This document shows, in pieces, positions 8,755 to 55,843 of a stretch of DNA of 64,000 bases. Numbering within the stretch: position 1 is the first letter of the stretch; each line of letters starts with the position of its first letter. The position numbers and the translations under genes were made by a program. Source of the DNA: a phage. Where the stretch lies: the sequence record PZ445536.1; one strand, written 5' to 3'. The notes under the pieces are model-generated. The model saw only the letters and a program-made list of their open reading frames with translations, made no database searches and was not told where the DNA came from.

Positions 8755-9933
8755 TTAAAAATATTTTTTAAAACTCATCATAACTTTATCATCAACATCA
8801 TTATCAATCTGTGCAACAAGGTAAGATGACAGTTCTACTTCTTGTGGCGCGGATTGAACATTATCAGAATTAAGATATTCACGAATCCAAGGATATGGAT
8901 GTTTAACCGGAGCATCGATAATTGGGCATGGAAGACCACACTGTTTCATACGAGATACAGTTAAGTAATCAATAAAGCTCCACATGCTATTTGTATTTAA
9001 TCCAGGAACATCGCCATCTTTAAATAAATGAACTGCCCAATCTTTTTCTTGGCGGTTAACTTCCATGAAAATATCAACTGCTTCTTGTTCACACTCTTGA
9101 GCAATTTTAACCCATTCATCGCCATCAGTACCAGATTGAAGTTGACGAATAATATATTGTGTACCTTTAAGATGAAGCTGCTCATCACGTGCAATGAACT
9201 TCATAATCTTTGCATTGCCTTCCATAATTTCCATGTTCTTATGGAAGTTAAAGGTACATGCGAAAGATACATAAAAACGAATAGCTTCCAATGCGTTGAT
9301 TACATGCAAACAGAGGTAAAGAGATTTCATTAGCTCACGCTTCCAATATGTCTCATGCTCAATAGCATCTTCAATAACATCTTCGTCTGCATTAATTTCT
9401 TTTTGGTATTCGATATCAGCTTTAGCGTTTTCCCAATAACGAGTTTTAGTCAGAACATCATCATAATAACGTCCAATGGATTCAGCACGTTTCATAATAG
9501 CTTCATCTAATACAATCTCATCAAATACCTTCGATGGATCAGTATAAAGATTTCGCATGATATGTGTATATGAACGAGAGTGAATAGTTTCACTAAAAGT
9601 CCACGTAGCAACCCATGTATCAAGGCTTGGGTCTGAAATTAATGACATAAGTACAGCAGACGGCGCACGACCCTGAATGCTATCCAAAAGTGATTGATAC
9701 TTCAGATTATTAGTAAAAATATTTTGCTGATACTGAGGAAGCTTATTAAACTGTGCAGCATCCATCATTAAGTTTACTTCTTCAGGACGCCAGAAAAATG
9801 ATAATTGCTTTTCGGTTAAATCTTCAAAAACTTTATGGCGTTGAATATCATAACGCGCAATACCAAGACCTGAACCAAAAAACATAGGTTCTTTTAAAAC
9901 ATCAACTGGATTTGTATTAAAAACTGTGCTCAT
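8755..9933 (-). CDS. nrdB: ribonucleotide reductase small subunit
   Basis: 392-aa uninterrupted ORF; class Ia R2 ferritin-like features; T4 NrdB synteny; no intron. Confidence 0.9.
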   Translation of the reverse strand: MSTVFNTNPVDVLKEPMFFGSGLGIARYDIQRHKVFEDLTEKQLSFFWRPEEVNLMMDAAQFNKLPQYQQNIFTNNLKYQSLLDSIQGRAPSAVLMSLISDPSLDTWVATWTFSETIHSRSYTHIMRNLYTDPSKVFDEIVLDEAIMKRAESIGRYYDDVLTKTRYWENAKADIEYQKEINADEDVIEDAIEHETYWKRELMKSLYLCLHVINALEAIRFYVSFACTFNFHKNMEIMEGNAKIMKFIARDEQLHLKGTQYIIRQLQSGTDGDEWVKIAQECEQEAVDIFMEVNRQEKDWAVHLFKDGDVPGLNTNSMWSFIDYLTVSRMKQCGLPCPIIDAPVKHPYPWIREYLNSDNVQSAPQEVELSSYLVAQIDNDVDDKVMMSFKKYF

Positions 9934-9984
9934 AAATTTTCCGCTTAGTTAATAGTTGGTGACTCGTCCGTGAGTCAAATTATA

Positions 9985-12249
9985 TCATAATTTACAGGAT
10001 GAACAATCTTCAGCTTTTGGAGTTTCTATTTCATAATCATCAGTACCAGAACCATCACGGGTATTATGATAATAGAAATTTTTTCCGCCAAAATACCAAA
10101 AATACAAAAGGTCATCAATCATTATTGACATTGGAACCTTTCCTTTTGGAAAAATCTGTGGGTCATAATATGTATTCGCTGAAGCTGATTGACATACCCA
10201 TTTCAGCATAATAGCTACCTGCGTAAGATAAGGTTTATTACCTTTCTTAGCTAATTTCCATGTATAATCATAGAGGTCTATGTTATGCTCAATATTGGGC
10301 ACGACTTGATTAAAGGAGCCCTCTTTTGATTCTTTAACAGAGACTGGTCCACGTGGAGGCTCGATACCGTTTGTACTGTTAGAAACTTGGGAAGATGACT
10401 CACATGGCATAAGTGCTGATAATGTGCTATTACGGATGCCAAAGAGCTTAAGGTCTTCCCGCAGCGACGACCAGTCACAAACGTATTTTGGAGCTGCGAT
10501 TTGGTCAATCTTTTTATTGTACCAGTCGATAGGTAATTCGCCTCGAGACCAACGAGTGTCTGAATAATATTCACAAGGTCCTTTTTCTTTGGCGAGCTTA
10601 ATGGATGCTTTAATGAGTCCATACTGTAATCTCTCAAATAGTTCATGTGTTAAATCGTTAGCATCTTCATAAGAAGCAAAGTTACTTGCCAGCCAAGCTG
10701 CATAGTTAGTAACACCTACACCAAGGTTTCGACGCTTTTTAGCTTTTTCTGCTTCAGGAACTGGATATCCTTGGTAATCCAAAAGATTATCAAGAGCACG
10801 AACTTGAACTTCTGCTAATTCATTAATTTTATCTTGGTCTTGCCAATCGAAGTTATCCAACACAAATGCAGATAACGTGCACAATCCAATTTCAGCATCA
10901 GGGCTATTCACATCATTTGTTGGAATAGCAATTTCACAGCACAAGTTACTCTGACGAATAGGTGCCTTTTCACGAATAAACGGAGTATAGTTATTCGTAT
11001 TATCAATGAACTGCACATAAATCCTTGCTGTTCCTGAGCGTTCAGTCATGAGCAATTCAAATAGTTCACGGGCTTTAATGCGCTTTTTACGAATATTAGG
11101 GTCTTTTTCTGCTGCTTCGTATAATTCACGGAAACGGTCTTGGTCTTTAAAATAAGAATAATAAAGCTCTCCACCCATTTCATGTGGACTGAACAAAGTA
11201 ATGTAATCGTTCTTTCCAAAACGTTCCATCATTAGATCATTCAGTTGAACACCATAATCCATATGACGAATGCGGTTTTCTTCTACACCTTTGTTATTTT
11301 TCAAAACGAGAAGATTTTCAACTTCCAAATGCCAAATAGGATAATAAGCAGTAGCAGCGCCGCCACGAATTCCACCCTGTGAGCATGATTTAACAGCAGT
11401 CTGAAAATGTTTCCAAAAAGGAATAACACCGGTATGGCGTACTTCACCCATGCCAATCTTAGAACCTTCAGCACGAATCATACCAACGTTAATACCAATT
11501 CCAGCGCGTTTAGAGATATATTCAACAATTGAAGCGGAAGCCTTATTGATAGACTTTAATGAATCACCTGCCTCAATAACAACACATGAACTAAACTGTC
11601 GAGTCGGAGTACGGCAACCAGCCATAATAGGAGTTGGCAATGAAATCTGTCGAGTAGATACTGCTTCATAAAAACGGATAACGTGTTTTAATCTATCAAC
11701 AGGTTCATCTTGATGCAATGCCATTCCAATAGTCATAAATGCAAACTGTGGAGTTTCATAAATTTGACCAGTGGTTTTATCTTTAACTAGATATTTTTCT
11801 TTTAATTGCATCGCCCCGGAATAAGTAAATTCCATATCCCGCTCGTGCTTAATTTTTGATTCTAAAAATGTAATTTCTTCTGCTGAATATTTTGACAATA
11901 ATTCAGGGTCGTATTTACCTTCATTTACACAGTAAGAAATATGGTCAATAAATGAACGTGGTTCATACTGCCCATAAACATGCTTACGAAGAGCGAACAT
12001 TAGACAACGTGCAGCTACATATTGATAATCAGGCTCTTCAACCGAAATAGAATTCGCAGCGGCCTTAATGACAATAGTCTGAATATCATCAGTTGTCATT
12101 CCATCACGGAGATAAGATTTAATATTTTCATATAATTCATAAGGATCTACCGATGTTCCTTCAGCTGCCCAAGATAAAACTTTAATAATTTTTTGTGGGT
12201 CAAAGCTCTGAGAAACACCACTACTTTTGATAACATTAATTAATTGCAT
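9985..12249 (-). CDS. nrdA: ribonucleotide reductase large subunit
   Basis: 754 aa (T4 NrdA length); ATP-cone N-terminus, catalytic Cys/Glu/Asn residues (SNLCCEIA). Confidence 0.92.
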   Translation of the reverse strand: MQLINVIKSSGVSQSFDPQKIIKVLSWAAEGTSVDPYELYENIKSYLRDGMTTDDIQTIVIKAAANSISVEEPDYQYVAARCLMFALRKHVYGQYEPRSFIDHISYCVNEGKYDPELLSKYSAEEITFLESKIKHERDMEFTYSGAMQLKEKYLVKDKTTGQIYETPQFAFMTIGMALHQDEPVDRLKHVIRFYEAVSTRQISLPTPIMAGCRTPTRQFSSCVVIEAGDSLKSINKASASIVEYISKRAGIGINVGMIRAEGSKIGMGEVRHTGVIPFWKHFQTAVKSCSQGGIRGGAATAYYPIWHLEVENLLVLKNNKGVEENRIRHMDYGVQLNDLMMERFGKNDYITLFSPHEMGGELYYSYFKDQDRFRELYEAAEKDPNIRKKRIKARELFELLMTERSGTARIYVQFIDNTNNYTPFIREKAPIRQSNLCCEIAIPTNDVNSPDAEIGLCTLSAFVLDNFDWQDQDKINELAEVQVRALDNLLDYQGYPVPEAEKAKKRRNLGVGVTNYAAWLASNFASYEDANDLTHELFERLQYGLIKASIKLAKEKGPCEYYSDTRWSRGELPIDWYNKKIDQIAAPKYVCDWSSLREDLKLFGIRNSTLSALMPCESSSQVSNSTNGIEPPRGPVSVKESKEGSFNQVVPNIEHNIDLYDYTWKLAKKGNKPYLTQVAIMLKWVCQSASANTYYDPQIFPKGKVPMSIMIDDLLYFWYFGGKNFYYHNTRDGSGTDDYEIETPKAEDCSSCKL

Positions 12250-12566
12250 AAGTCCTCAACTTGAAAATCGTCTTTAAACAATCGGTTAACTATATGAGCT
12301 ATTATATCACCATGACACGGCTTTGGTTTACATGTGCATCCTAGCCTCATTCCACGTAAAGGCTCTAAATGTGCTTTAGTTATTTCTCCGGATTTAATTC
12401 GACGTATAAAATCTTTTTTGAATAATTCAATGGCAGCCTCCCGGCTGCCAGCATCTTTACCGACGTAATTTCCCCAAAATGTACCGCGGTGAATATTAAC
12501 ATCAAAGTCGGATTTGTATTTATTCACTACCCGGCATAGACGGCCCGGTTGGTAATAATTCTTCAT
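12240..12566 (-). CDS. hypothetical protein (108 aa)
   Basis: ORF between td and nrdA. Confidence 0.6.
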
Positions 12567-12795
12567 ATTGTTTTTCCGTTAAAACAGTAATATCGTAGTA
12601 ACAGTCAGAAGAAGTTTTAACTGTGGAAATTTTATTGTCAAAATACTCACGAGTCATTTTATGAGTATAGTATTTTTTACCATAAATGGTAATAGGCTGT
12701 TCTGGTCCTGGAACTTCTAACTCGCTTGGATTAGGAAGTGTAAAAAGAACGACACCAGAAGTATCTTTAAATCGTAAAATCATATATCCTCTCAA
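12520..12795 (-). CDS. hypothetical protein (91 aa)
   Basis: ORF between td and nrdA, overlaps previous ORF by 47 nt. Confidence 0.5.
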
Positions 12796-12806
12796 TTAAA
12801 TTAAAA

Positions 12807-13667
12807 TTATACCGCCATTTTTCCTTTAATTGGCAGATGAGATACATAGTTGTTAAGAACAAAATTATGAGGCTTTGCAAATTGACTCAACCAAAATACC
12901 TGCGATTCTGTGTCCCATTCATCAAATTCATCTGGAAATTTTAATTGTAATTCGCATAAATCCATAGGTTCACGACGCAAAATTTCTTTACATTGTTCTA
13001 CGTGATTCATATAGATATGAGTATTACCACCAGAAAATATCAAATCTCCCGGAATAAGATTACACATCTTAGCTACAATATGAACTAACGTAGCATATGA
13101 TGCAATATTAAATGGAAGACCGAGGAAAACATCTACCGAACGTTGATACCACTGCAAATCTAAATAGCCATTACGCACATTAAACTGATAGAACATATGA
13201 CAAGGAGGTAATGCCATATATTTAAGTTCAGCTGGATTCCACGCAGAAACAATTTGACGCCTATCATTTGGCAGTTTTTTAATACGATCAACAACTTCTA
13301 TAATTTGGTCTACACCGCCAAAATCACGCCACTGTTTTCCATAAATTGGACCAAGTTCACCGCTATGGTATCCTAAATCTTTTGCCTGATTTTCGTAATT
13401 TTCATCCCAAACTGTTTTGCCTTGGATTAACGAATCGTGTTGAATTAATCGTAAATCATTAACATTTGTGCTTCCTGATAAAAACCATATTAGCTCAGCA
13501 ATGCATGCATTCCAGGCGAGCTTCTTAGTTGTTACTGCAGGAAAACCTTTGGTTAAATCCCAACGCAATTTAGTACCGAACAGAGCAATTGTTCCTGTGC
13601 CCGTTCGGTCATCGGTTTCATAGCCATTTTCAAAAATGTCTTTAATTAAATCTTGGTATTGTTTCAT
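12807..13667 (-). CDS. td: thymidylate synthase (intron-less)
   Basis: 286 aa (T4 Td length) as one continuous ORF; catalytic LPPCH motif. Confidence 0.92.
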   Translation of the reverse strand: MKQYQDLIKDIFENGYETDDRTGTGTIALFGTKLRWDLTKGFPAVTTKKLAWNACIAELIWFLSGSTNVNDLRLIQHDSLIQGKTVWDENYENQAKDLGYHSGELGPIYGKQWRDFGGVDQIIEVVDRIKKLPNDRRQIVSAWNPAELKYMALPPCHMFYQFNVRNGYLDLQWYQRSVDVFLGLPFNIASYATLVHIVAKMCNLIPGDLIFSGGNTHIYMNHVEQCKEILRREPMDLCELQLKFPDEFDEWDTESQVFWLSQFAKPHNFVLNNYVSHLPIKGKMAV

Positions 13668-13712
13668 TTAGTACCTTATATAAATTATAATACATTTTAT
13701 GAAGCTAAATAA

Positions 13713-14060
13713 TCAATACGGTTTAGCATCAAATTTTCTCTCAATTTCAGGTGTGAAATATAATTCTTTACCGCGTTTGGAAAAACGACCAATAATATGA
13801 TAATTATTCTCATCAAACGTGATATTACCAATATCCATAGCTTTCAACCAAATATCAATATTTCTATCCAGCTTTATGTCAAAATTCCAATACGGAGAAC
13901 TATTACCGAAAATACTGCAAGCGGATTCAGTGAAACAACTACTATAAATCTTGTCTTTAGGAACTACTAATTGATAAACGCCTTTAATAAACTGAGGACC
14001 CTGCCACTTTGGCTGTTTCTCATCTTTTTCTAATAGAATAGGGTAATAATTAAAATTCAT
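13713..14060 (-). CDS. hypothetical protein (115 aa) between frd and td
   Basis: Intact ORF; I do not recall a T4 counterpart at this position. Confidence 0.6.
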   Translation of the reverse strand: MNFNYYPILLEKDEKQPKWQGPQFIKGVYQLVVPKDKIYSSCFTESACSIFGNSSPYWNFDIKLDRNIDIWLKAMDIGNITFDENNYHIIGRFSKRGKELYFTPEIERKFDAKPY

Positions 14061-14079
14061 ATTTCCGCCACGCGTTATT

Positions 14080-14906
<827 letters not shown>

Positions 14907-16282: not shown

Positions 16283-17191
16283 TTAAAGGTCATTCAAAAG
16301 GTCATCCAGGTCCGTGTCATCAGCACTAGATGAACTGCCAGAGCTTGAGCTCATAAAATCATCTTCAGTTTTTGTATTGAAGTCATCAACATTGAATGCA
16401 TCCAAATCATCAGCAACTTTATCAGCTTTCTTAGCAGCAGTCGCTGCGGCACCGCCCATCACAGCAGTTCCCATAACTTGACCGAATTTAGTATTCAGTT
16501 CTTCAAATGATTTGAATTTATCTTTAGAAGTCATTTCAGAAAGGTCAACCATTTGTTCGAACAGTTCTTTCTGGAAAGATTCATCATCAATGTTTGGAAT
16601 CGCAGATTGATTCAGGAATTTAGATTCGTCGTAGTTACTAAATCCAGAAACTTGTTTAACTTTCAGTACAAAGTTAGCACCTTCCCACGGACAAGTTACA
16701 TCAACTGGAGTTTCACCCATTTCAACATCAACCGCAATCATTGCATTGATTTTATCCCAGATTTTCTTACCGAAACGGTATTTAAATACTTTACCTTCGT
16801 TTTCTGGAGCAGCTGGGTCTTTTACTACAAGAATGTTAGCCCAGTAAGAAGTTTTACGTTTAACAAGACTGTACTCTTTATTGTCAGTGTTGTACAGATC
16901 ATTTTTACTAATGTATTGACATACTGGGCAAGAATCGTAATCACCGTGGGTAGATGAACAGTTTTCAATATACCATTTACCATTTTTCTTGAAACCGTGA
17001 TTTACAAGAATTGCGAATGGTGCTTGTTCATCATTTTTAGACGGAAGAAAACGAATTACTGCTTGACCGTTACCCGCATTGTCGAGTTTCAGTTTCCACT
17101 CGCCTTTATCTTCAGAAGAAAAACCACCTTTATTTCCAGCCAGTTTAGCCATTTGTGCAGCGAGTTCAGCAGTAGATTTACGTTTAAACAT
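16283..17191 (-). CDS. 32: gp32 single-stranded DNA-binding protein
   Basis: 302 aa, [17 protein letters not shown], acidic C-terminal tail; T4 gp32. Confidence 0.93.
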
Positions 17192-19556: not shown

Positions 19557-22500
19557 ATGGCCGAGATTAAAAGAAAGTTCAGAGCAGAAGATGGTCTGGA
19601 CGCAGGTGGCGATAAAATAATCAACGTAGCTTTAGCTGATCGTACCGTAGGAACTGACGGTGTTAACGTTGATTACTTAATTCAAGAAAACACAGTTCAA
19701 CAATACGATCCAACTCGTGGATATTTAAAAGATTTTGTAATCATTTATGATAACCGCTTTTGGGCTGCTATAAATGATATTCCAAAACCGGCAGGAGCTT
19801 TTAATAGCGGACGCTGGAGAGCATTACGTACCGATGCTAACTGGATTACAGTCTCATCTGGTTCATATCAATTAAAATCCGGTGAAGCTATTTCGGTTAA
19901 CACCGCAGCTGGTAATGATATTACATTTACTTTACCATCTTCTCCAATTGATGGTGATACTATCGTTCTCCAAGATATTGGAGGAAAACCTGGAGTTAAC
20001 CAAGTTTTAATTGTAGCTCCGGTGCAAAGTATTGTAAACTTCAGAGGTCAACAAGTACGTTCAGTACTAATGACTCATCCAAAGTCACAGCTAGTTTTAA
20101 TTTTTAGTAATCGTCTGTGGCAAATGTATGTTGCTGATTATAGTAGAGAAGCTGTAGTTATAACACCAGCAAGTCTCTATCAGGCGCAATCTAATGATTT
20201 TATCGTACGTAGATTTACTTCTGCTGCACCAATTAATGTTAAACTTCCAAGATTTGCTAATCATGGCGATATTATTAATTTCGTTGATTTAGATAAACTG
20301 AATCCACTTTATCATACAATTGTTACTACATACGATGAAACGACTTCAGTACAAGAAGTTGGAACTCATTCCATTGAAGGCCGTACATCGATTGACGGTT
20401 TCTTGATGTTTGATGATAATGAGAAATTGTGGAGATTGTTTGACGGTGACAGTAAAGCGCGTTTACGCATTATAACGACTAATTCTAATATTCGTCCAAA
20501 TGAAGAAGTCATGGTATTTGGTGCGAATAACGGAACAACTCAAACAATTGAGCTTCAGCTTCCAACTAATATTTCTGTTGGTGATACTGTTAAAATTTCC
20601 ATGAATTACATGAGAAAAGGACAAACAGTTAAAATCAAAGCTGCCGGTGAAGATAAAATTGCTTCTTCAGTTCAATTGCTGCAATTCCCAAAACGTTCAG
20701 AATATCCGCCTGAAGCTGAATGGGTAACTGTTCAAGAATTAGTTTTTAACGGTGAAACTAATTATGTTCCAGTTTTACAACTTGCTTATATAGAAGATTC
20801 TGATGGAAAATACTGGGTTGTACAACAAAACGTTCCAACCGTAGAAAGAGTAGACTCTTTGAATGATTCTACTAGAGCAAGATTAGGCGTAATTGCTTTA
20901 GCTACACAAGCTCAAGCTAATGTCGATTTAGAAAATTCTCCACAAAAAGAATTAGCAATTACTCCAGAAACATTAGCTAACCGTACTGCTACAGAAACTC
21001 GCAGAGGTATTGCAAGAATAGCAACTACTGCTCAAGTGAATCAGAACACCACATTCTCTTTTGCAGATGACCTTATCATTACTCCTAAAAAGCTGAATGA
21101 AAGAACTGCTACAGAAACTCGCAGAGGTGTTGCTGAAATTGCTACGCAGCAAGAAACTAATGCAGGAACCGATGATACTACAATCATCACTCCTAAAAAG
21201 CTTCAAGCTCGTCAAGGTTCTGAATCATTATCTGGTATTGTAACTTTTGTATCTACCACAGGCGCTACTCCAGCTTCTAGTCGTGAATTAAATGGTACAA
21301 ACGTTTATAATAAAAACACTAATAATTTAGTTGTTTCACCTAAAGCTTTGGATCAGTATAAAGCTACTCCAACGCAGCAAGGTGCAGTAATTTTAGCAGT
21401 TGAAAGTGAAGTAATTGCTGGACAAAGTCAGGAAGGATGGGCAAATGCTGTTGTAACACCAGAAACGTTACATAAAAAGACATCAACTGATGGAAGAATT
21501 GGTTTAATTGAAATTGCTACTCAAAGCGAAGTTAATACAGGAACTGATTATACTCGTGCAGTCACTCCTAAAACTTTAAATGACCGTAGAGCAACTGAAA
21601 GTTTAAGTGGTATAGCTGAAATTGCTACACAAGTTGAATTCGACGCAGGCGTCGACGATACTCGTATCTCTACACCATTAAAAATTAAAACTAGATTTAA
21701 TAGTACTGATCGTACTTCTGTTGTTGCTCTATCTGGATTAGTTGAATCAGGAACTCTCTGGGACCATTATACCCTTAATATTCTTGAAGCAAATGAGACA
21801 CAGCGTGGTACACTTCGTGTAGCTACACAGGTCGAAGCTGCTGCAGGAACATTAGATAATGTTTTAATAACTCCTAAAAAGCTTTTAGGTACTAAATCTA
21901 CCGAATCACAGGAAGGTGTTATTAAAGTTGCAACCCAGTCTGAAACTGTTACTGGAACGTCAGCAAATACTGCTGTATCTCCAAAAAATTTAAAATGGAT
22001 TGTGCAGAGTGAACCTACTTGGGCAGCTACTACTGCGATAAGAGGTTTTGTTAAAACTTCATCTGGTTCAATTACATTCGTTGGTAATGATACAGTTGGT
22101 TCTACACAGAGCTTAGAGCTATACGAGAAAAATAGCTATGCAGTATCACCATATGAATTAAACCGTGTATTAGCAAATTATTTGCCGTTAAAAGCAAAAG
22201 CTGCTGATACAAATTTATTAGATGGTCTAGATTCATCTCAGTTCATTCGTAGGGATATTGCACAGACGGTTAATGGTTCACTAACCTTAACCCAACAAAC
22301 GAATCTGAGTGCCCCTCTTGTATCATCTAGTACTGCTACGTTTGGTGGATCAGTTTCGGCAAATAGTACATTAACTATTTCTAATACTGGAACGGCAACT
22401 CGTCTGATATTTGAGAAAGGACCTCAAACTGGAACGAACCCAGCGCAGACGATGACTATCAGAGTTTGGGGAAATCAGTTTGGTGGTGGATCAGATACAA

Positions 22501-23426
22501 CACGTTCTACTGTATTTGAAGTTGGTGATGAAACATCTAATCACTTTTATTCTCAACGTAATAAAGCTGGTAATATTACGTTTAGCATTAATGGTACTGT
22601 GATGCCAATAAATGTTAACGCTTCCGGTTCATTGAATGCGAATGGCGTTGCAACATTTGGTAGTTCAGTTACTGCTAATGGCGAATTCATCAGCAAGTCT
22701 GCAAATGCTTTTAGAGCAATTAGTGGTGATTACGGATTCTTTATTCGCAATGATGCTGCTACCACATATTTTATGCTCACTGCATCCGGTGATCAGACTG
22801 GCGGATTTAATGGATTACGTCCTTTAGCTATTAATAATGCATCTGGCCAAGTAACGATTGGTGAAAGCTTAATCATTGCCAAAGGTGCTACTATAAATTC
22901 AGATGGTTTGACTGTTAACTCGAGAATTCGTTCTCAGGGTACTAAAACATCTGATTTATATACCCGTGCGCCAACATCTGATACTGTAGGATTCTGGTCA
23001 ATCGATATTAACGATTCAGCCACTTATAACCAGTTCCCGGGTTATTTTAAAATGGTTGAAAAAACTAATGAAGTGACTGGACTTCCATACTTAGAACGTG
23101 GCGAAGAAGTTAAATCTCCTGGTACACTGACACAGTTTGGTAACACACTTGATTCGCTTTACCAAGATTGGATTACTTATCCAACGACACCAGAAGCGCG
23201 TACCACTCGCTGGACACGTACATGGCAGAAAACCAAAAACTCTTGGTCAAGTTTTGTTCAGGTATTTGACGGAGGTAACCCTCCTCAACCATCTGATATC
23301 GGTGCTTTACCATCTGATAATGCTACAATGGGGAATCTTACTATTCGTGATTTCTTACGAATTGGTAATGTTCGCATTATTCCTGACCCAGTGAATAAAA
23401 CGGTTAAATTTGAATGGGTTGAATAA
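19557..23426 (+). CDS. 34: gp34 long tail fiber proximal subunit
   Basis: 1289 aa (T4 gp34 length); internal ~40-aa repeats (TETRRG..IAT..TPKKL); late promoter. Confidence 0.93.
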   Translation: MAEIKRKFRAEDGLDAGGDKIINVALADRTVGTDGVNVDYLIQENTVQQYDPTRGYLKDFVIIYDNRFWAAINDIPKPAGAFNSGRWRALRTDANWITVSSGSYQLKSGEAISVNTAAGNDITFTLPSSPIDGDTIVLQDIGGKPGVNQVLIVAPVQSIVNFRGQQVRSVLMTHPKSQLVLIFSNRLWQMYVADYSREAVVITPASLYQAQSNDFIVRRFTSAAPINVKLPRFANHGDIINFVDLDKLNPLYHTIVTTYDETTSVQEVGTHSIEGRTSIDGFLMFDDNEKLWRLFDGDSKARLRIITTNSNIRPNEEVMVFGANNGTTQTIELQLPTNISVGDTVKISMNYMRKGQTVKIKAAGEDKIASSVQLLQFPKRSEYPPEAEWVTVQELVFNGETNYVPVLQLAYIEDSDGKYWVVQQNVPTVERVDSLNDSTRARLGVIALATQAQANVDLENSPQKELAITPETLANRTATETRRGIARIATTAQVNQNTTFSFADDLIITPKKLNERTATETRRGVAEIATQQETNAGTDDTTIITPKKLQARQGSESLSGIVTFVSTTGATPASSRELNGTNVYNKNTNNLVVSPKALDQYKATPTQQGAVILAVESEVIAGQSQEGWANAVVTPETLHKKTSTDGRIGLIEIATQSEVNTGTDYTRAVTPKTLNDRRATESLSGIAEIATQVEFDAGVDDTRISTPLKIKTRFNSTDRTSVVALSGLVESGTLWDHYTLNILEANETQRGTLRVATQVEAAAGTLDNVLITPKKLLGTKSTESQEGVIKVATQSETVTGTSANTAVSPKNLKWIVQSEPTWAATTAIRGFVKTSSGSITFVGNDTVGSTQSLELYEKNSYAVSPYELNRVLANYLPLKAKAADTNLLDGLDSSQFIRRDIAQTVNGSLTLTQQTNLSAPLVSSSTATFGGSVSANSTLTISNTGTATRLIFEKGPQTGTNPAQTMTIRVWGNQFGGGSDTTRSTVFEVGDETSNHFYSQRNKAGNITFSINGTVMPINVNASGSLNANGVATFGSSVTANGEFISKSANAFRAISGDYGFFIRNDAATTYFMLTASGDQTGGFNGLRPLAINNASGQVTIGESLIIAKGATINSDGLTVNSRIRSQGTKTSDLYTRAPTSDTVGFWSIDINDSATYNQFPGYFKMVEKTNEVTGLPYLERGEEVKSPGTLTQFGNTLDSLYQDWITYPTTPEARTTRWTRTWQKTKNSWSSFVQVFDGGNPPQPSDIGALPSDNATMGNLTIRDFLRIGNVRIIPDPVNKTVKFEWVE

Positions 23427-31829: not shown

Positions 31830-32465
31830 TCACAGTTCAGATGCTACAGTGATTACAGCTTCAATGTTTTCTACCGAGCGTTTAATGTCAAGATACACAT
31901 TACCGTTTTTAGCGATTTTACATGACATTCCGATATCAGTAAATTTCTGAATATGATGTTCCATCATTTTGTATCCAAAAATTCGCATATTTCCATTGTT
32001 GTTAATTTCAAAATTGCGAATTCCGTGAGTGCGTTTTTCTAAAATAGCGAGATAGTTACTGCGATAAGTTTCAACCTTTTTAAGAACAAATCCATTTTCA
32101 TCCAAAAGTTTTAACATGAGGTCTTTATCTTCTTCCATATCAGAAGTAATCTCGCGAGCTTTACGAGTTGCTCGTTTTTTCAGCAGTTCCGGAGCATTTT
32201 CCTGTGCGTATAAAGTTGCTGCGTTTGAAATAATATCCTGAGCTTCACCTGTAATGATTAATCCATCACCAGATTTCTCTACCAGGCCTTTTTTAATCAA
32301 TACCCCAATATTACTATTAACTACTGCGTTACCTAAATCTGGATGCACCTCACGAACTTCTGCAGCTGTAATGAAATCTTTCTTAGCAATAGTAATTAAA
32401 ATCGCAGCAGTTTTTTCATTCAGAACATCGTTAGAAGCTTTGATGATGTAAGTTACTTTAGACAT
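31830..32465 (-). CDS. motA: MotA middle-transcription activator
   Basis: 211 aa, MSKVTYIIKASNDVLNEKTAAIL; T4 MotA. Confidence 0.9.
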   Translation of the reverse strand: MSKVTYIIKASNDVLNEKTAAILITIAKKDFITAAEVREVHPDLGNAVVNSNIGVLIKKGLVEKSGDGLIITGEAQDIISNAATLYAQENAPELLKKRATRKAREITSDMEEDKDLMLKLLDENGFVLKKVETYRSNYLAILEKRTHGIRNFEINNNGNMRIFGYKMMEHHIQKFTDIGMSCKIAKNGNVYLDIKRSVENIEAVITVASEL

Positions 32466-48752: not shown

Positions 48753-49060
48753 CGGAAAGTCCCTGCAATTGGAATACTAACAATACGCCCAGTATCTAAA
48801 ATTCGCTGATATAATCTTTGTGTGTCTACGTCAGGCTTAACGTGTTTAACTTCTATTTTATTAAACCAAAATTTACGTGGAGTCTCAACTAATCTTGGAA
48901 TTCCCTTACCTAAAGCTAGTCGATACTGCTCTTTAAGAGTGGTAAATACTTTATCAGCAATCTTCCATTCAAAAAACACAGCAGGACGATGTTCATCAAG
49001 CGGAACTGGCGCCGTAAATCCGTCTTTATCTCGGTAAACTATCGCGTATACATAAACCAT
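48749..49060 (-). CDS. hypothetical protein (dda.1-like, 103 aa)
   Basis: ORF overlapping dda start by 4 nt. Confidence 0.6.
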   Translation of the reverse strand: MVYVYAIVYRDKDGFTAPVPLDEHRPAVFFEWKIADKVFTTLKEQYRLALGKGIPRLVETPRKFWFNKIEVKHVKPDVDTQRLYQRILDTGRIVSIPIAGTFR

Positions 49061-49061
49061 A

Positions 49062-49808
49062 TTATCCTCGGATAAGTTTAAAAATTGAACAATTTAGCGG
49101 GTATCCTCTTTTCAGTTTAAGTTTATCAATAAAAGACAAGTTTTGATACCGCTCTACACCTTGAATAATTTTATCACACATATCATATTGCATTTCTGCT
49201 TCTGACAACTTTTTCACGGTTTTCCAATCCGAGCCTTTAAGAAGAACGTTCAATTTAACAACTTCAGCGCCTTCTGCTATACGAGAACCATCAATACGAG
49301 CTTTAAGTGCTATAATCGTTAGCTTAACGTCAGAAGTTTGTTTTGATTTAGAAAGCTGAGAAATGTGCTCAATTCGGTTTTCACGTTTTTTCTGTATAGC
49401 TTTAATTTGATTATAAGTCTTTTTGATTTTAGCCCATTTCTTTTCATCTAAATTTAGTTTATGAACTTTTTTCGCAGATGAACGACCAATTCGCAAAGCA
49501 AATAAATCACGCTTTTCAATCAACTCTTCTAAAGTATAATCAGAACGAAATGTATTATACTTTTTCTTTACTGCAATAACATTCCCTTTAATGTATCCAA
49601 CGTTATTATCAAAACGTTCTAATGATAATTTCTCTCCTTCAATACGATTATCAAAAGGTTCTCCCGAATAAGCACAAACTTTTTGATCTAAAATGTTCTT
49701 AATGTAATTGAAGTCTAAGTTAAAATCTTTAGAACGTCTTTTTGCAGATGCCTGAGTATGCTCTAGACGACGTTTAATTTTACGAATTTGATTATTAGAC
49801 AGCTTCAT
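49062..49808 (-). CDS. srd: probable Srd (sigma-related decoy protein), 248 aa
   Basis: Size and position downstream of dda.1 as in T4; basic helical protein; identity by synteny only. Confidence 0.5.
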   Translation of the reverse strand: MKLSNNQIRKIKRRLEHTQASAKRRSKDFNLDFNYIKNILDQKVCAYSGEPFDNRIEGEKLSLERFDNNVGYIKGNVIAVKKKYNTFRSDYTLEELIEKRDLFALRIGRSSAKKVHKLNLDEKKWAKIKKTYNQIKAIQKKRENRIEHISQLSKSKQTSDVKLTIIALKARIDGSRIAEGAEVVKLNVLLKGSDWKTVKKLSEAEMQYDMCDKIIQGVERYQNLSFIDKLKLKRGYPLNCSIFKLIRG

Positions 49809-49844
49809 ATTTTTCTCACATCTTACGGACGGTTAACTACTTAT

Positions 49845-49874
49845 ACTATAACATTTTTACTTTAGCTTGTAAAC
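49845..49874 (-). promoter_or_regulatory. T4-type early promoter (GTTTAC, 18 bp, TATAGT) upstream of srd
   Basis: rc gtaaac 49869-49874; rc actata 49845-49850. Confidence 0.5.
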
Positions 49875-49889
49875 AACTTTATGTAAAAA

Positions 49890-49914
49890 TGCTTTAAAAA
49901 TTTCATGGTATAAT
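49890..49914 (+). promoter_or_regulatory. consensus MotA-box middle promoter on + strand (TGCTTTA-12-TATAAT), antisense to modA
   Basis: tgcttta 49890-49896, 12-bp spacer, tataat 49909-49914 with upstream TGG; no + strand ORF downstream. Confidence 0.35.
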
Positions 49915-49932
49915 GAATCTAAGTCCTTCCCA

Positions 49933-50535
49933 TTATAGATTAAATCCTTCAAAATCAAGAGTATAGATAGTATATGTTGAATACTTTTTATACTCATATC
50001 TATCTGCAATTCTAAATACACTTCCAGCTGGTATCATTACTTCTTGTTCATCTGAAACTAATTCCATATTACGATAACGATGGCTATCCGGAAACTTAAA
50101 GTTTGGATTGTATTCTTTACAGCGTAGAGCTTTTATAGCATACTCCTGGAAATTGAATACCATAGGAGCTTTGAATTCAAAAATAACCTGTGTGTTATAC
50201 TCTAAACCGGAAGCAAAATGTAGAGCTATATTTTTATCATATGAAGCTGATACTACTTTATCAAATGTAATAATATCAATTCCTTGATTTAATATTTGTT
50301 TAGTCTCGACTGGAACACCTCTCCAAAGAGGTTTATCGTTTGGAACCAAACGAGATTTGATTATTTCATTTAACCAAGTATGGTCATCTGGCTTATTAGT
50401 AATACAATGAATTAAAAGTTCAATTTCAGATAAATTAAACCCTTCAGAAAGTAATTCTTCACGAATAGAAGCACGCACCGATGCATCCATTGATTTTATT
50501 TTAAAATCTTTTAGTTGCATTACTGAGTATTTCAT
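49933..50535 (-). CDS. modA: ModA ADP-ribosyltransferase
   Basis: 200 aa (T4 ModA length); R-S-E ART motifs (LWRG, VVSAS, EQEVMIP). Confidence 0.8.
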   Translation of the reverse strand: MKYSVMQLKDFKIKSMDASVRASIREELLSEGFNLSEIELLIHCITNKPDDHTWLNEIIKSRLVPNDKPLWRGVPVETKQILNQGIDIITFDKVVSASYDKNIALHFASGLEYNTQVIFEFKAPMVFNFQEYAIKALRCKEYNPNFKFPDSHRYRNMELVSDEQEVMIPAGSVFRIADRYEYKKYSTYTIYTLDFEGFNL

Positions 50536-51157
50536 TCAACTACCTCAATATCATAAACTTTAAATGTTCCAAATGAATCGTGTAATTTTTCTTTTGAAAT
50601 AGAAGTTATTCTATACTTTCCAATTGGAATCATCCATTCTTGTTCACGCACAATCATCATTAAGTTATCAGTACGCTCTGAATCTAGCCCATCAGTATCT
50701 TCATACGTGTACTTGAACTCAGTATTAGGAGAAGAAAGTATAATATCGCTGATATGGTCAGAATAATTAAAAGCTTTATCAGTTTTTAAGCGAAGTATTA
50801 TTTTAGTAAAATATTCAGCATAAGAAAAAGAACATGCTGTGAGTAAACTAGTAGTAAATGAATCTACTCTGTTCGTTGAAAACACTTCTCCAACTTGTAA
50901 ATCTTTTTAATAAGTTCTTCTGTTGATTTTGATATACCACGATATAGCTGATAAGGTGATTTAGTTAAATGCTTTTTAATGATTTTATTCAATTGCCGAT
51001 GAAGAGCTTCATTCTTTTTAGCTTCCATACATTGCCAAAGAACAGACTGCTCAAAATCAGTAAATTTTTCACAGACCTTTTTATACATATCATATTGAAA
51101 ATCGACGCTTTCAGCTTTTATAGATAACTGTTCAACATCTGCAAGATTAATAATCAT
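50532..51157 (-). pseudogene. modB: ModB ADP-ribosyltransferase, split by an apparent -1 frameshift in an A5 run (ORFs 50864..51157 and 50532..50885)
   Basis: N-terminal ORF carries the R motif (QLYRGISKS) and ends at 50864; overlapping ORF carries STS-like (VFSTN) and catalytic EQEWMIP motifs; coding-strand run ATTAAAAAGATT (+ strand T5 50904-50908); one extra A would give a continuous ~207-aa protein. Confidence 0.6.
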
Positions 51158-51183
51158 GATAGCCTCCGTATACTTCAGAAGCT

Positions 51184-51213
51184 ATCATATCATCGTTAGA
51201 AAGGAAAGTAAAC
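51184..51213 (-). promoter_or_regulatory. T4-type early promoter (GTTTAC, 18 bp, TATGAT) upstream of modB
   Basis: rc gtaaac 51208-51213; rc atcata 51184-51189; GGAGG SD before the ATG. Confidence 0.5.
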
Positions 51214-51224
51214 AACTTTTTGAA

Positions 51225-51407
51225 TTATTTTGCCCAGGGAGCCCAGGGCGGAGGGTCAAGATGGTATGAAGCTAGTTCTTCTAGAAGAGCATCTGGGGCT
51301 TCAATTCCATAATTCTGTAATACTATACGGTACTCTTTCTTATAATCACTAGAATCATTCTGGATATTCGTAGAATGATTATCTTCTAACATCTCAAATA
51401 AATCCAT
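51225..51407 (-). CDS. hypothetical protein (60 aa)
   Basis: ORF in modB-soc interval. Confidence 0.5.
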   Translation of the reverse strand: MDLFEMLEDNHSTNIQNDSSDYKKEYRIVLQNYGIEAPDALLEELASYHLDPPPWAPWAK

Positions 51408-51415
51408 ATTAATTC

Positions 51416-51886
51416 CTAGCGATAAAAACCAAATTGACGATTAGCTTCAATAATCTTTCTTTCTTCTTCGGACATTCTCCAGCGTAGTCCAACATCAAAA
51501 TGGGCCCAGACCATCTTAACAAATGCGTGTATGTCTTTAATATCCTCAATAATGAATGTTTTACTTTTAGAAGGTTGACTCGCTAATTTAACCTTATCAT
51601 CTTCAAACAGGTCAAAAAGACCATATTCATGAGCTCTTTTATAGCCTTTAATAGTTAAAGCTTCGGAAGAAGAAAACGGTGAATCAGTATTCTGCAAAAT
51701 ATCTTCAGTATGCTTTATAATTAGAATAACATTTTCTGGATATTTTCTTTCTTTTATATCTTTAATTAAAATATCCGGATTTTCTGCTAAAGGAATAATT
51801 AATGAGCACTTTTTGTCAAGTGTATTTACTGATTTACCTTCTTTAGACATAAATTCTATTGAATAATGTTTTGCTACTTCAATCAT
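51416..51886 (-). CDS. hypothetical protein (156 aa)
   Basis: ORF in modB-soc interval. Confidence 0.6.
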
Positions 51887-53355: not shown

Positions 53356-53601
53356 TTATTCACCAGTTACTTTCCACAAATCTTCATTTGCAGCAATCCA
53401 TTCAGTACGTTGATTTTCTTCATATACTGTAGAATATGCTGCTTTTTCTGAAGGGAATGTCTGATAATGAGCACCAGAAATTTTGTGAACGTCAGAATAA
53501 AGAGGGAAAGCTACAGAAATTTCCTTTCCTTCAATTTTCTTATTTCCATCTAATTTCTGCTCAAATGTTTTGATATTAACATAACCGCGAGTACTAGCCA
53601 T
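53356..53601 (-). CDS. soc: Soc small outer capsid protein
   Basis: 81-codon ORF MASTRGYVNIKTFEQKLDG...; matches recalled T4 Soc; late promoter upstream. Confidence 0.85.
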   Translation of the reverse strand: MASTRGYVNIKTFEQKLDGNKKIEGKEISVAFPLYSDVHKISGAHYQTFPSEKAAYSTVYEENQRTEWIAANEDLWKVTGE

Positions 53602-53618
53602 GTAATTCTCCTTTTATT

Positions 53619-53828
53619 TTAAATTACATGATTATTTATAATAAATTCTCGCGGAACGTTAAAATACCCAATTTTAGTTAATATAACAATATCGCCGTTA
53701 ATAATTACCGGAGAATAATCGGCTAGAGCATTAAATTTCCAATGGGCTCTAATATTATATCCATCAGAACCAAATGCTCGACTAGCCGGTCTCCCGGCTT
53801 TTTGCCATGCATAAAAATCAAATTTCAT
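53619..53828 (-). CDS. hypothetical protein (69 aa)
   Basis: ORF between soc and 56. Confidence 0.5.
   Translation of the reverse strand: MKFDFYAWQKAGRPASRAFGSDGYNIRAHWKFNALADYSPVIINGDIVILTKIGYFNVPREFIINNHVI
53633..53640 (-). promoter_or_regulatory. late promoter TATAAATA for soc
   Basis: rc of tatttata about 30 nt upstream of the soc ATG. Confidence 0.6.
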
Positions 53829-54028
53829 TTTGAATGCTCTATAATTAATTTTAAGGCTTCTTCACGCACCAACTTGTCTAATGGTATATGCCCAGTTTTA
53901 ATTGTGTAAGCTTTGTGGAGCTGATTAGATAAGAGCTCGTATGTGAGCTCTTTGTCATAATCTTTAAATAGCTGGTCAATACGTTTCTTGCAGGCTTTCT
54001 TAAGCTGGCGTTTATTTAAACGAGCCAT
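53825..54028 (-). CDS. hypothetical basic protein (67 aa)
   Basis: ORF between soc and 56. Confidence 0.5.
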   Translation of the reverse strand: MARLNKRQLKKACKKRIDQLFKDYDKELTYELLSNQLHKAYTIKTGHIPLDKLVREEALKLIIEHSK

Positions 54029-54546
54029 TAATAGCCTCTGTCTTGACGAGCGAAGTTTTCAGCATTTTTCAGATAATAAAGTTTAAATATTTCTTCAGCT
54101 GACATTCCAAGAGCAATAAATTTATTCATGAAAAAGTGAAATTGATCAATCAGTTCAAATTTAATTTCAAGTTGATCTTCAGGAGATAAATCTTGAATTT
54201 TCTTGGATTGCATTTCAGAATAACGTTTCTTCCAAGGTTTCCATACAGCAGAAGCTTCTTTTTCACCATTACTCATACCACCAAGAGAAGTATATAGTTC
54301 GCGAGTTTCATCTGCGATATAATCGTCTTGGTTTCGCAACCAAGCAAGAACTTCTCCTGCGGTTTCAAGTGAATCAGGATGACGATTTGTTTCTGGTTTA
54401 TCATTAGCCAAACGAATCTGTAAATGCCGCTGCATATCAAGCATAACCTGCAGTGGGTCAATATTGTGCATAATATTCTCAGCATATGCACGATTTGCTT
54501 TATCAACACCTTCGATCAAATGAGCACATTCATTAAAGTAAGCCAT
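54028..54546 (-). CDS. 56: gp56 dCTPase/dUTPase (MazG-like NTP pyrophosphatase)
   Basis: About 172 aa from MAYFNECAHLIEG; C-terminus ...FKLYYLKNAENFARQDRGY as recalled for T4 gp56; AAAGGAAAAATAATG RBS. Confidence 0.8.
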   Translation of the reverse strand: MAYFNECAHLIEGVDKANRAYAENIMHNIDPLQVMLDMQRHLQIRLANDKPETNRHPDSLETAGEVLAWLRNQDDYIADETRELYTSLGGMSNGEKEASAVWKPWKKRYSEMQSKKIQDLSPEDQLEIKFELIDQFHFFMNKFIALGMSAEEIFKLYYLKNAENFARQDRGY

Positions 54547-54580
54547 TATTTTTCCTTTCAATTCATGGGTTAGTAGATTA

Positions 54581-54604
54581 ATTATACAATAAATATATAA
54601 AGCA
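54581..54604 (-). promoter_or_regulatory. putative MotA-dependent middle promoter for gene 56 (TGCTTTA-11-TATAAT)
   Basis: rc taaagca 54598-54604; rc attata 54581-54586. Confidence 0.45.
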
Positions 54605-54617
54605 ATAAGGAGGACAT

Positions 54618-54818
54618 ATGGTACAAAAATTAATGGCACTTGTTAATGCCATAAAAGGTAATAAAAAACGTATAGCTTTTACTATTTCTGCTATGGTAGG
54701 AATTTTACTCTGGAACTTTATTCTATCACCTGTTGCAATTGCGCATGGTATTAATATTCCAGTAGTTACTCTTGATACATTTGTAGATTTAGCATTTGCT
54801 TTAGTTGGGTTGATTTAA
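54618..54818 (+). CDS. small hydrophobic protein on + strand (66 aa), uncertain
   Basis: ORF with strong AAGGAGG SD 5 nt upstream; two predicted TM segments; lies opposite to all neighbouring genes. Confidence 0.35.
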   Translation: MVQKLMALVNAIKGNKKRIAFTISAMVGILLWNFILSPVAIAHGINIPVVTLDTFVDLAFALVGLI

Positions 54819-55843
54819 ATCTTAGCATATTTAGATAGCCGCATTTTAGCCATCAACCCCTGGGCAATATTATTTTTCATATATTCCATAATTTGTTCAG
54901 GGGTTGCACCTTCCTTTCTAATCATATCATTGACATCTTTTGATTTCCAGGGAGATTTATCCCAAAACATAACCCTTTCTCCTGCATCAACTAATTTAGT
55001 CATTCGTTTGATAGTGTCAGGGTGACGAGGTTCATTATCTAAAACCCACACTCGTCTATCTTTAAATGGAACAACTTCTAGGTCTAATTGACCACCTGTA
55101 ATAGCTATACCATTTTCAATAAAAAGTGAATCTATAGGTCCTTCTAGGACATATACATCACCATCTTTAACTCGTTCAACACCGTAAATTTTTGTTGCCT
55201 CAGGATAAGCTTTAATGGTGATATATTTTTGAGGAGCATCTTTCTTTAATGCACGTCCTTGAAAAGACTCAGCTTTTCCATTAGCATTATAAATTGGAAT
55301 AACAAGACGAGGCTCAGAAATTTCCTTTTTGTATGTTCCCGGTGCTATGCTATTAACTAATTTAGGCCATTCGGTTGTAAACCAAAGATATTTCCATTTA
55401 TCCTTTGGAATACAACGAGCTTTTACATATTTTATAATTGGATGGTCTTCCGCCAGTTTATCTAATCTAACACATGACGGAAGAGATTTAATTATTTTCT
55501 TCTCAGGTTGCTTAGGAAGTTCTTTAGGTTTTTCTACTGGACGACTTTTACCTTTTTCTTTTCTTATTTCAAAGATATACTCACGATATAAATCAGGTTC
55601 AAACTCCTTTAAATATATTCCGATTGGTGCATGATAATTACAGTTATAACAATGAATATTTCCTTCATTATTATCACCATAATACCATCCACGAGCTTTA
55701 TTCTGGTCGGTTTTTGAATCTCCACAAACAGGACATCTAAACCGCAATTTAAAAGTTGAACTATTATTTACTTGTGTGAATTTAGGTAAATGAGCCAATG
55801 CACGATACGCAAACTCATTATCAATCCAAGGTATTGATGACAT
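54815..55843 (-). CDS. 61: gp61 DNA primase
   Basis: 342 aa (T4 gp61 length); N-terminal zinc ribbon CPVC...CYNC and Toprim domain. Confidence 0.9.
   Translation of the reverse strand: MSSIPWIDNEFAYRALAHLPKFTQVNNSSTFKLRFRCPVCGDSKTDQNKARGWYYGDNNEGNIHCYNCNYHAPIGIYLKEFEPDLYREYIFEIRKEKGKSRPVEKPKELPKQPEKKIIKSLPSCVRLDKLAEDHPIIKYVKARCIPKDKWKYLWFTTEWPKLVNSIAPGTYKKEISEPRLVIPIYNANGKAESFQGRALKKDAPQKYITIKAYPEATKIYGVERVKDGDVYVLEGPIDSLFIENGIAITGGQLDLEVVPFKDRRVWVLDNEPRHPDTIKRMTKLVDAGERVMFWDKSPWKSKDVNDMIRKEGATPEQIMEYMKNNIAQGLMAKMRLSKYAKI

Follow-up and report, generated by a model that had tools for sequence, protein, structure and literature searches.

A conserved, probable middle promoter facing the transferase gene next to srd: a candidate antisense element of T4-like phages

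Phage T4 serves as the reference system for phage gene regulation. Its middle promoters, of which 58 have been mapped experimentally, follow the consensus (a/t)(a/t)(a/t)TGCTTtA, 12+/-1 bp, TAtaaT, and about half of them carry a TGn (Hinton 2010, PMC2988021). The replication origins oriF and oriG are composed of such a middle promoter and an A+T-rich unwinding element, and a minimal origin of this type extends over about 100 bp, middle-mode promoter included (PMC3016281). For oriG, the T4 record states that the 'primer RNA is opposite direction of adjacent gene 34'.

A different layout is common to lambda OOP/cII, P22 sar and the T4 gene 32 antisense transcripts, i.e. a convergent promoter beyond the stop codon of the target gene. 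In lambda, the OOP promoter lies just beyond the stop codon of cII, a dosage-sensitive regulatory gene, and the OOP RNA is antisense to the end of the cII message, on its 3' side. According to PMC3014915, which credits the antisense transcripts of T4 gene 32 to Belin et al. 1987, T4 has no regulatory RNA of established function; a T4 dRNA-seq preprint gives 150 phage start sites, 22 of them antisense (bioRxiv 10.1101/2024.04.04.588121). Two statements of the middle-transcription review are relevant for the genes discussed here: ModA synthesis is highly toxic, and the shut-off of early genes, whose cause is unknown, proceeds without ModA or AsiA (PMC2988021).

Our analysis focused on a stretch of 64,000 nucleotides from the phage record PZ445536.1 (hereafter the window). 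By its sequence, the source phage is a T4-like Tequatrovirus; the 1 kb around the element of interest shares 98.2% identity with T4 and up to 98.7% with other Tequatrovirus members, and window position 49890 corresponds to position 11866 of T4 AF158101. A first-pass annotation had described a middle promoter match on the plus strand with TGG before the -10, placed among minus-strand genes. The sequence reads exactly so: aaaTGCTTTA-N12-TGgTATAAT occupies 49887-49914 of the plus strand and satisfies the consensus at all positions, namely in the box, the 12-bp gap, the -10 and the TGn. The element is located in the 124-bp spacer that separates srd from modA, both of which are encoded on the minus strand. 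An ORF for the activator is also present in the window (31830-32465), with 99-100% identity to proteins annotated as MotA. The features of the locus, read from the sequence, the published consensus, the ORF list and the T4 record, are as follows.

49887..49896, plus strand: MotA box (-30 element), aaaTGCTTTA
49897..49908, plus strand: 12-nt gap, aaaatttcaTGG, whose last bases TGG (49906-49908) form an extended -10 (TGn)
49909..49914, plus strand: sigma-70 -10 hexamer, TATAAT
49915..49923, plus strand: discriminator and predicted start, gaatctAAg, with +1 expected at the A of 49921 or 49922, the usual 6-7 nt from the -10
49933..50535, minus strand: modA, RNA polymerase ADP-ribosyltransferase of 200 aa, the gene faced by the promoter; its stop codon is 18 nt from the -10
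50532..51157, minus strand: modB, next in the antisense path; frameshifted, since one A-run is 2 nt longer than in T4, which truncates the product at 97 aa
49062..49808, minus strand: srd, on the opposite side of the spacer
49845..49873, minus strand: srd early promoter, TTTACA-N17-TATAGT with TG, back-to-back with the MotA box

Because the modA stop codon lies only 18 nt beyond the -10, an RNA starting at about 49921-49922 would enter modA in antisense orientation. The modB gene is split into ORFs of 97 aa and 117 aa, the A-run being ATTAAAAAGATT here and ATTAAAGATT in T4; given this 2-nt insertion, modB would be either a pseudogene in PZ445536.1 or the victim of a homopolymer error in the assembly. 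We dismissed as a candidate gene a short ORF that spans the element on the minus strand (window translation MKFLKHFYIKLFTS): in T4 it is reduced to 8 aa, and in T2 its ATG is lost. On the srd side, the record of Yersinia phage fPS-2 carries a predicted early promoter at the site homologous to that upstream of srd. The srd ribosome-binding site is, in addition, closely preceded by a hairpin-forming motif CGTCCGTAAGA(C/T)G (window 49819-49833, minus-strand reading CCGTCCGTAAGATG). This leader motif is also found in the loci L017-L024, L026 and L027, and of the six genera compared, five have conserved it; the word TCTTAC occurs in 6 of 15 lineage spacers. It may represent a translational or processing signal.

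Perfect matches of this kind are rare in the window. The pattern TGCTTTA-N11-13-TATAAT occurs twice in the 64 kb, both strands considered, versus 0.04 occurrences expected from shuffles, and none of 100 shuffled sequences contained two or more. The second perfect match (54604..54581, minus strand) immediately precedes gene 56 and corresponds to the known middle promoter P56/oriA. When the box is relaxed to TGCTTYA-N11-13, only three matches in the window possess a perfect TATAAT: P56/oriA, P34i/oriG and the srd-modA element. The P34i/oriG promoter, tttGCTTCA-N13-TATAAT at 21794..21766 of the minus strand, is embedded in the tail-fibre gene 34 (19557-23426, plus strand) and oriented against it. 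As for the surroundings of P56, window coordinates are 53356-53601 for soc, ~54545 (start) to ~54028 (end) for gene 56 and 54815-55843 for gene 61; compared with T4, the homing endonuclease gene segF (soc-56 interval) and the methylase gene dam (56-61 interval) are apparently missing from window 53356-55843. A mapped middle promoter of T4, Pdda.1, is located inside srd (T4 start site 11138, minus strand) and has a poor MotA box, AAATGCAAT. The corresponding boxes of Gaprivervirus and Mosigvirus (L017 and L019: AACGCTTTT and ATCGCTTTT) are nearer to the consensus; in T4, Gaprivervirus and Mosigvirus alike, the Pdda.1 box is weaker than that of the antisense element.

The element is widespread among T4-like phages. 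Between a Mod-family ADP-ribosyltransferase gene and srd, the pattern GCTTNN-N12/13-TATAAT is found at 51 of 56 srd loci, and at every one of these 51 it is oriented into the transferase gene. The 51 loci represent 33 distinct sequences from at least 13 lineages and six named genera (Tequatro-, Gapriver-, Mosig-, Dhaka-, Gelderland- and Jiaodavirus); since the lineages share kinship, the locus counts exceed the number of independent observations. In each of the srd/mod loci fetched from the six genera, the sole GCTTNN-N11-13-TATAAT match is the one in the transferase-srd interval, aimed at the transferase. A wider survey of IMG/VR via Srd alignment, in which loci were assigned to lineages by sequence similarity alone, recovers the element in 35 of 39 T4-like loci. 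Of the 33 distinct sequences, 16 have a box-to-TATAAT gap of 12 bp and 17 one of 13 bp, with free sequence in between; position 6 of the box is T or C, and TGn is present in roughly half of the versions, as in T4 middle promoters generally.

GCTT and TATAAT are imposed by the search pattern, and the bases outside of it are informative in their own right. Among the 33 distinct sequences, a T precedes GCTT in 88% and follows it in 94%, while the start region is characterized by G at -6 (100%), T at -3 (100%), A at +1 (85%) and G at +3 (94%). Only a motif-free tally of 6-mers, for which the strand is not assignable, escapes the bias of the pattern. In the spacers of 15 lineage representatives, two without the element included, the most widely common words of this tally are TATAAT/ATAATG (13/15) and TGCTTT (11/15); the word GTTTAC of the srd early -35 reaches 7/15. 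Conservation inside Tequatrovirus says little, because the entire spacer is conserved there, with few differences, located in the gap or at the permitted T/C of the MotA box. Between genera, the flanks are unalignable: blastn similarity to Mosigvirus and Gaprivervirus ends near the srd 5' end, and ModA proteins share only ~25-39% identity. We read the resulting pattern, two fixed blocks separated by a gap of fixed length and free sequence, as that of a promoter. The first-pass annotation had proposed conservation in related phages as a check and had left room for a fortuitous match in AT-rich DNA. The element proves to be the most widely common feature of the spacer, in at least 13 lineages, and its rarity in the window together with its conservation between genera leads us to reject a chance match.

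Several loci in which the surroundings have changed are instructive. Spacers of the Gelderland- and Jiaodavirus type, with a length of 77-87 nt, have no srd early promoter, and the element is still present. In Tequatrovirus, the MotA box overlaps the zone expected for an UP element of the srd early promoter (-38 to -59). A by-product of that UP element is nevertheless not what we see, because the element is kept in spacers without the early promoter; furthermore, TATAAT lies outside any UP element. In Jiaodavirus, the srd-leader hairpin motif (CTTACGGACGG) forms the gap between MotA box and TATAAT (13 bp), whereas in Tequatrovirus the same motif is found beyond the MotA box, at a distance of ~75 bp. 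The MotA box has thus shifted relative to the leader motif while its distance of 12-13 bp to TATAAT was kept, which indicates that the promoter is re-made and not merely inherited. In one lineage of IMG/VR contigs (L050, L051 and L064), an ORF of 63 aa is inserted between the transferase gene and srd (locus positions ~1351-1542); the element still adjoins the transferase stop codon. In 43 of 45 loci, a minus-strand ORF of 200 aa or more has its stop codon 3-46 nt from the -10.

The element does not systematically accompany srd. It is absent from Proteus phage Pm5461-like phages, which have no mod gene beside srd, and from Serratia PS2/Muldoon-like phages, whose upstream ORF is barely Mod-like. 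Serratia phage 92A1 possesses a Mod-like gene beside srd, yet lacks the element. A missing activator does not explain these absences, since Muldoon-like and Providencia phage lineages without the element encode MotA homologues (Providencia is one host among the Pm5461 relatives found). With regard to the target, the earlier claim of an antisense aim at modA/modB is borne out in its geometry and has to be refined in its gene names: outside Tequatrovirus, the faced transferase resembles ModB and ModA of T4 to about the same degree. A strict linkage to ModA orthologues is accordingly softened, as it also is by the transferase without promoter of phage 92A1, and 'Mod-family gene next to srd' seems the safer name for the faced gene.

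Downstream of the element, two features of the plus strand come into consideration.

49921..50535, plus strand: predicted non-coding antisense transcript over at least the modA coding region, maybe into modB
50317..50353, plus strand: tandem weak terminator-like hairpins with weak T-runs, ~400-430 nt further on; they may provide a 3' end in Tequatrovirus alone

As the first-pass annotation had noted, no credible plus-strand ORF follows: over the next 700 nt, none has a Shine-Dalgarno sequence and none recurs from one genus to another, which argues against a promoter for a small plus-strand protein. A search of window 49000-51500 against Rfam returned no match at E up to 1, so that membership of a known RNA family was discarded as well. 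We found no conserved intrinsic terminator downstream. The hairpins at 50317-50353, located in the modA coding region, consist of ACCTCT-CCAA-AGAGGT and TCGTTTGG-AA-CCAAACGA; they fold on either strand, over codons of the conserved PLWRG region, and are present in T4 but not in other genera. The fold of the predicted RNA from +1 to +440 has a z of -1.6 (not significant), and the first 100 nt of 14 representative loci have no common 5' hairpin (z from -3.2 to +1.8), hence a structured RNA was also rejected. Because no ORF, Rfam family, terminator or fold is shared downstream, the predicted product is best described as a non-coding transcript, whose sole conserved property is its complementarity to the transferase message. 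Such a product fits a role exerted via complementarity or via the act of transcription.

We propose that the element is a middle promoter of the MotA/AsiA (sigma appropriation) type, aided in PZ445536.1 by its extended -10, which would fire towards modA from ~1-2 minutes after infection. The non-coding RNA, initiated at ~49921-49922, which corresponds to ~11,897-11,898 of T4 NC_000866.4, would be complementary to the 3' end of the modA message, probably to the whole of modA, and possibly to modB. The early, toxic Mod ADP-ribosyltransferase genes, whose enzymes are active during the first minutes, would then be turned down once middle transcription starts. This could happen through head-on collision of polymerases with transcription from the early promoters upstream of modB-modA, through pairing of the RNA with the mod message, the duplex then hindering translation or serving as a substrate of RNase III, or through both routes together. 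We infer transcription of the element, its dependence on MotA and its effect on the mod genes from the sequence comparisons described above. Some good consensus matches in T4 reportedly yield a transcript neither in vivo nor in vitro, and mainly for this reason caution is advisable regarding promoter activity. We nonetheless consider it highly probable that the element is an active promoter; that it is a MotA/AsiA-dependent promoter whose role is to oppose mod expression appears to us about evenly balanced.

Other interpretations of the same data deserve attention. The promoter could be real and its product or occupancy serve a purpose unrelated to mod, be it a trans-acting small RNA with a C/U-rich 5' end that pairs with ribosome-binding sites, or a polymerase/MotA complex that blocks srd read-through or occludes the srd UP element. 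In most lineages, the first 15 nt of the predicted RNA are indeed rich in pyrimidines, and the surroundings of the start site are conserved; the MotA box of four genera lies within the zone where an UP element of the srd early promoter would be expected, at 16-17 bp from the -35. Moreover, Uzan and Miller 2010 point out that T4 has so far yielded no characterised trans-acting RNA and that candidates might come to light through comparative genomics (PMC3014915). From a discrete small RNA, however, one would expect a shared fold, a terminator or an Rfam family, none of which emerged from the comparison, and occlusion is at odds with the persistence of the element where no srd early promoter exists to be occluded. 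After the ORF insertion mentioned above, the element stays with the transferase gene and not with srd, and altogether we regard a purpose unrelated to mod as unlikely. Alternatively, an untranscribed element might be conserved for a reason residing on the minus strand, either as a signal for 3'-end formation or processing of the mod mRNA or as a protein-binding site. Such a reading is compatible with the absence of the element from the list of mapped promoters (PMC2988021) and with the 6-mer tally, which cannot assign the strand; primers used in an NAD-cap preprint, mapped by eye, also imply a modB-modA RNA with a 3' end near the end of modA. A minus-strand signal would leave unexpected the MotA box and TATAAT blocks, their gap of 12-13 bp, the G at -6 and the A at the start, though, and an alignment reading revealed no conserved hairpin or U-run on the minus strand at the element. 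The MotA box has also moved relative to the neighbouring conserved sequence with its distance to TATAAT kept, and we consider a minus-strand cause very improbable.

The most interesting of the alternatives is an origin-type primer promoter as in oriF and oriG, because the element converges on P56 and because oriA has been placed only 'near soc'. The RNA would then form a persistent R-loop just downstream that primes leading-strand synthesis or makes a recombination hot spot, and the antisense orientation would be incidental. Precedents are at hand: oriG, in the same window, is a MotA promoter (P34i) antisense in gene 34 with a non-coding primer RNA, oriF and oriG both combine a middle promoter with an A+T-rich unwinding element (PMC3016281), and the other two matches with a perfect TATAAT belong to oriA and oriG. 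Between the element and P56, 4.65 kb away, lies soc, near which oriA is loosely located (PMC3016281). The 150 bp downstream of the element are among the least stable 2-5% of blocks in the window, with an instability at least equal to that of the oriG region. This instability is not conserved, however: in T4, 41% of locus blocks are as unstable, in the other five genera 7-41%, and a conserved unwinding element was accordingly dropped as a candidate, being seen in the window alone. The T4 record furthermore puts oriA at 16763, assigned to the P56 transcript and 4.9 kb from the element; it annotates oriG at 152947 and contains no rep_origin feature within 8877-14875. Neither this record nor the origin review (PMC3016281) has a mapped origin at T4 11.9 kb. 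The tight link to the transferase stop codon, retained after the ORF insertion, would not be expected of an origin either, and an origin-type function seems to us distinctly improbable. Comparably doubtful is the more far-reaching pair of claims that the element is a third MotA-driven R-loop/primer promoter, with the 'oriA near soc' zone bracketed by two convergent origin promoters (the element clockwise, P56 counter-clockwise), or else the first dedicated activator-timed antisense off-switch for a toxin-like phage enzyme, as part of early shut-off.

The preferred interpretation, a middle promoter that would oppose mod expression, concerns an element that has received little attention. It does not figure among the 58 T4 middle promoters mapped by experiment (Hinton 2010, Table 1, PMC2988021), and it is mentioned neither in the reviews by Kreuzer and Brister 2010 and Uzan and Miller 2010 nor in a 2018 DksA paper or a 2022 omics paper. 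The T4 records AF158101.6, NC_000866.4, MT984581 and M30001 have no promoter annotation at the element. The kinds of element involved, a middle promoter and a cis-antisense transcript, are already known, and so is a computational listing for RB69 from 2006. What is new is the candidate status of a conserved antisense middle promoter behind modA, possibly the source of the first regulatory RNA of T4-like phages. A conserved antisense promoter at the Mod genes offers a concrete candidate for two gaps at once, i.e. regulatory RNA and early-gene shut-off. Its -10 is placed in non-coding DNA and can be mutated without touching any protein. For annotation, too, the element is of value, having been flagged computationally in RB69 in 2006, yet left unannotated in the genome records examined.

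Among the described systems, the RB69 entry Pm:12081 (+) is the orthologous element itself: it covers 12081-12122 of the plus strand in the srd-modA interval (Nolan et al. 2006, PMC1524935, Additional file 4). It is an HMM match with a score of 7.9 in a computational list, given without comment, cross-phage comparison or test in the accessible part of the text. The T4 middle promoters P56, PuvsX and PrIIB2 resemble the srd-modA element in box, 12-bp gap, TGn and TATAAT, and the phage encodes MotA. The variation among relatives (T/C at box position 6, a gap of 12-13 bp, TGn in about half) remains within the limits of middle promoters. The promoters of Hinton's Table 1 take their names from the genes that they drive, with the oriG promoter P34i as the internal exception, whereas the srd-modA element faces the 3' end of an early gene and has no ORF to serve. 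Of the origin promoters (P34i at oriG, PuvsY at oriF), P34i is similar in being of the MotA type, oriented against the resident gene and productive of an RNA with a non-coding job. The oriG RNA differs in its action, as it primes replication from an R-loop within an unwinding element located downstream; at srd-modA, an unwinding element is not conserved. Compared with lambda OOP, a 77-nt RNA with its own terminator made by the unmodified host polymerase, the srd-modA element has no conserved terminator. A discrete short RNA of the OOP type is not apparent, as only the weak Tequatrovirus hairpins at ~+400-430 and no shared fold are found, and the timing would follow the phage's MotA. The placement, by contrast, is that of OOP, P22 sar and the gene 32 antisense transcripts: a convergent promoter with its -10 just beyond the stop codon of the gene that it faces.
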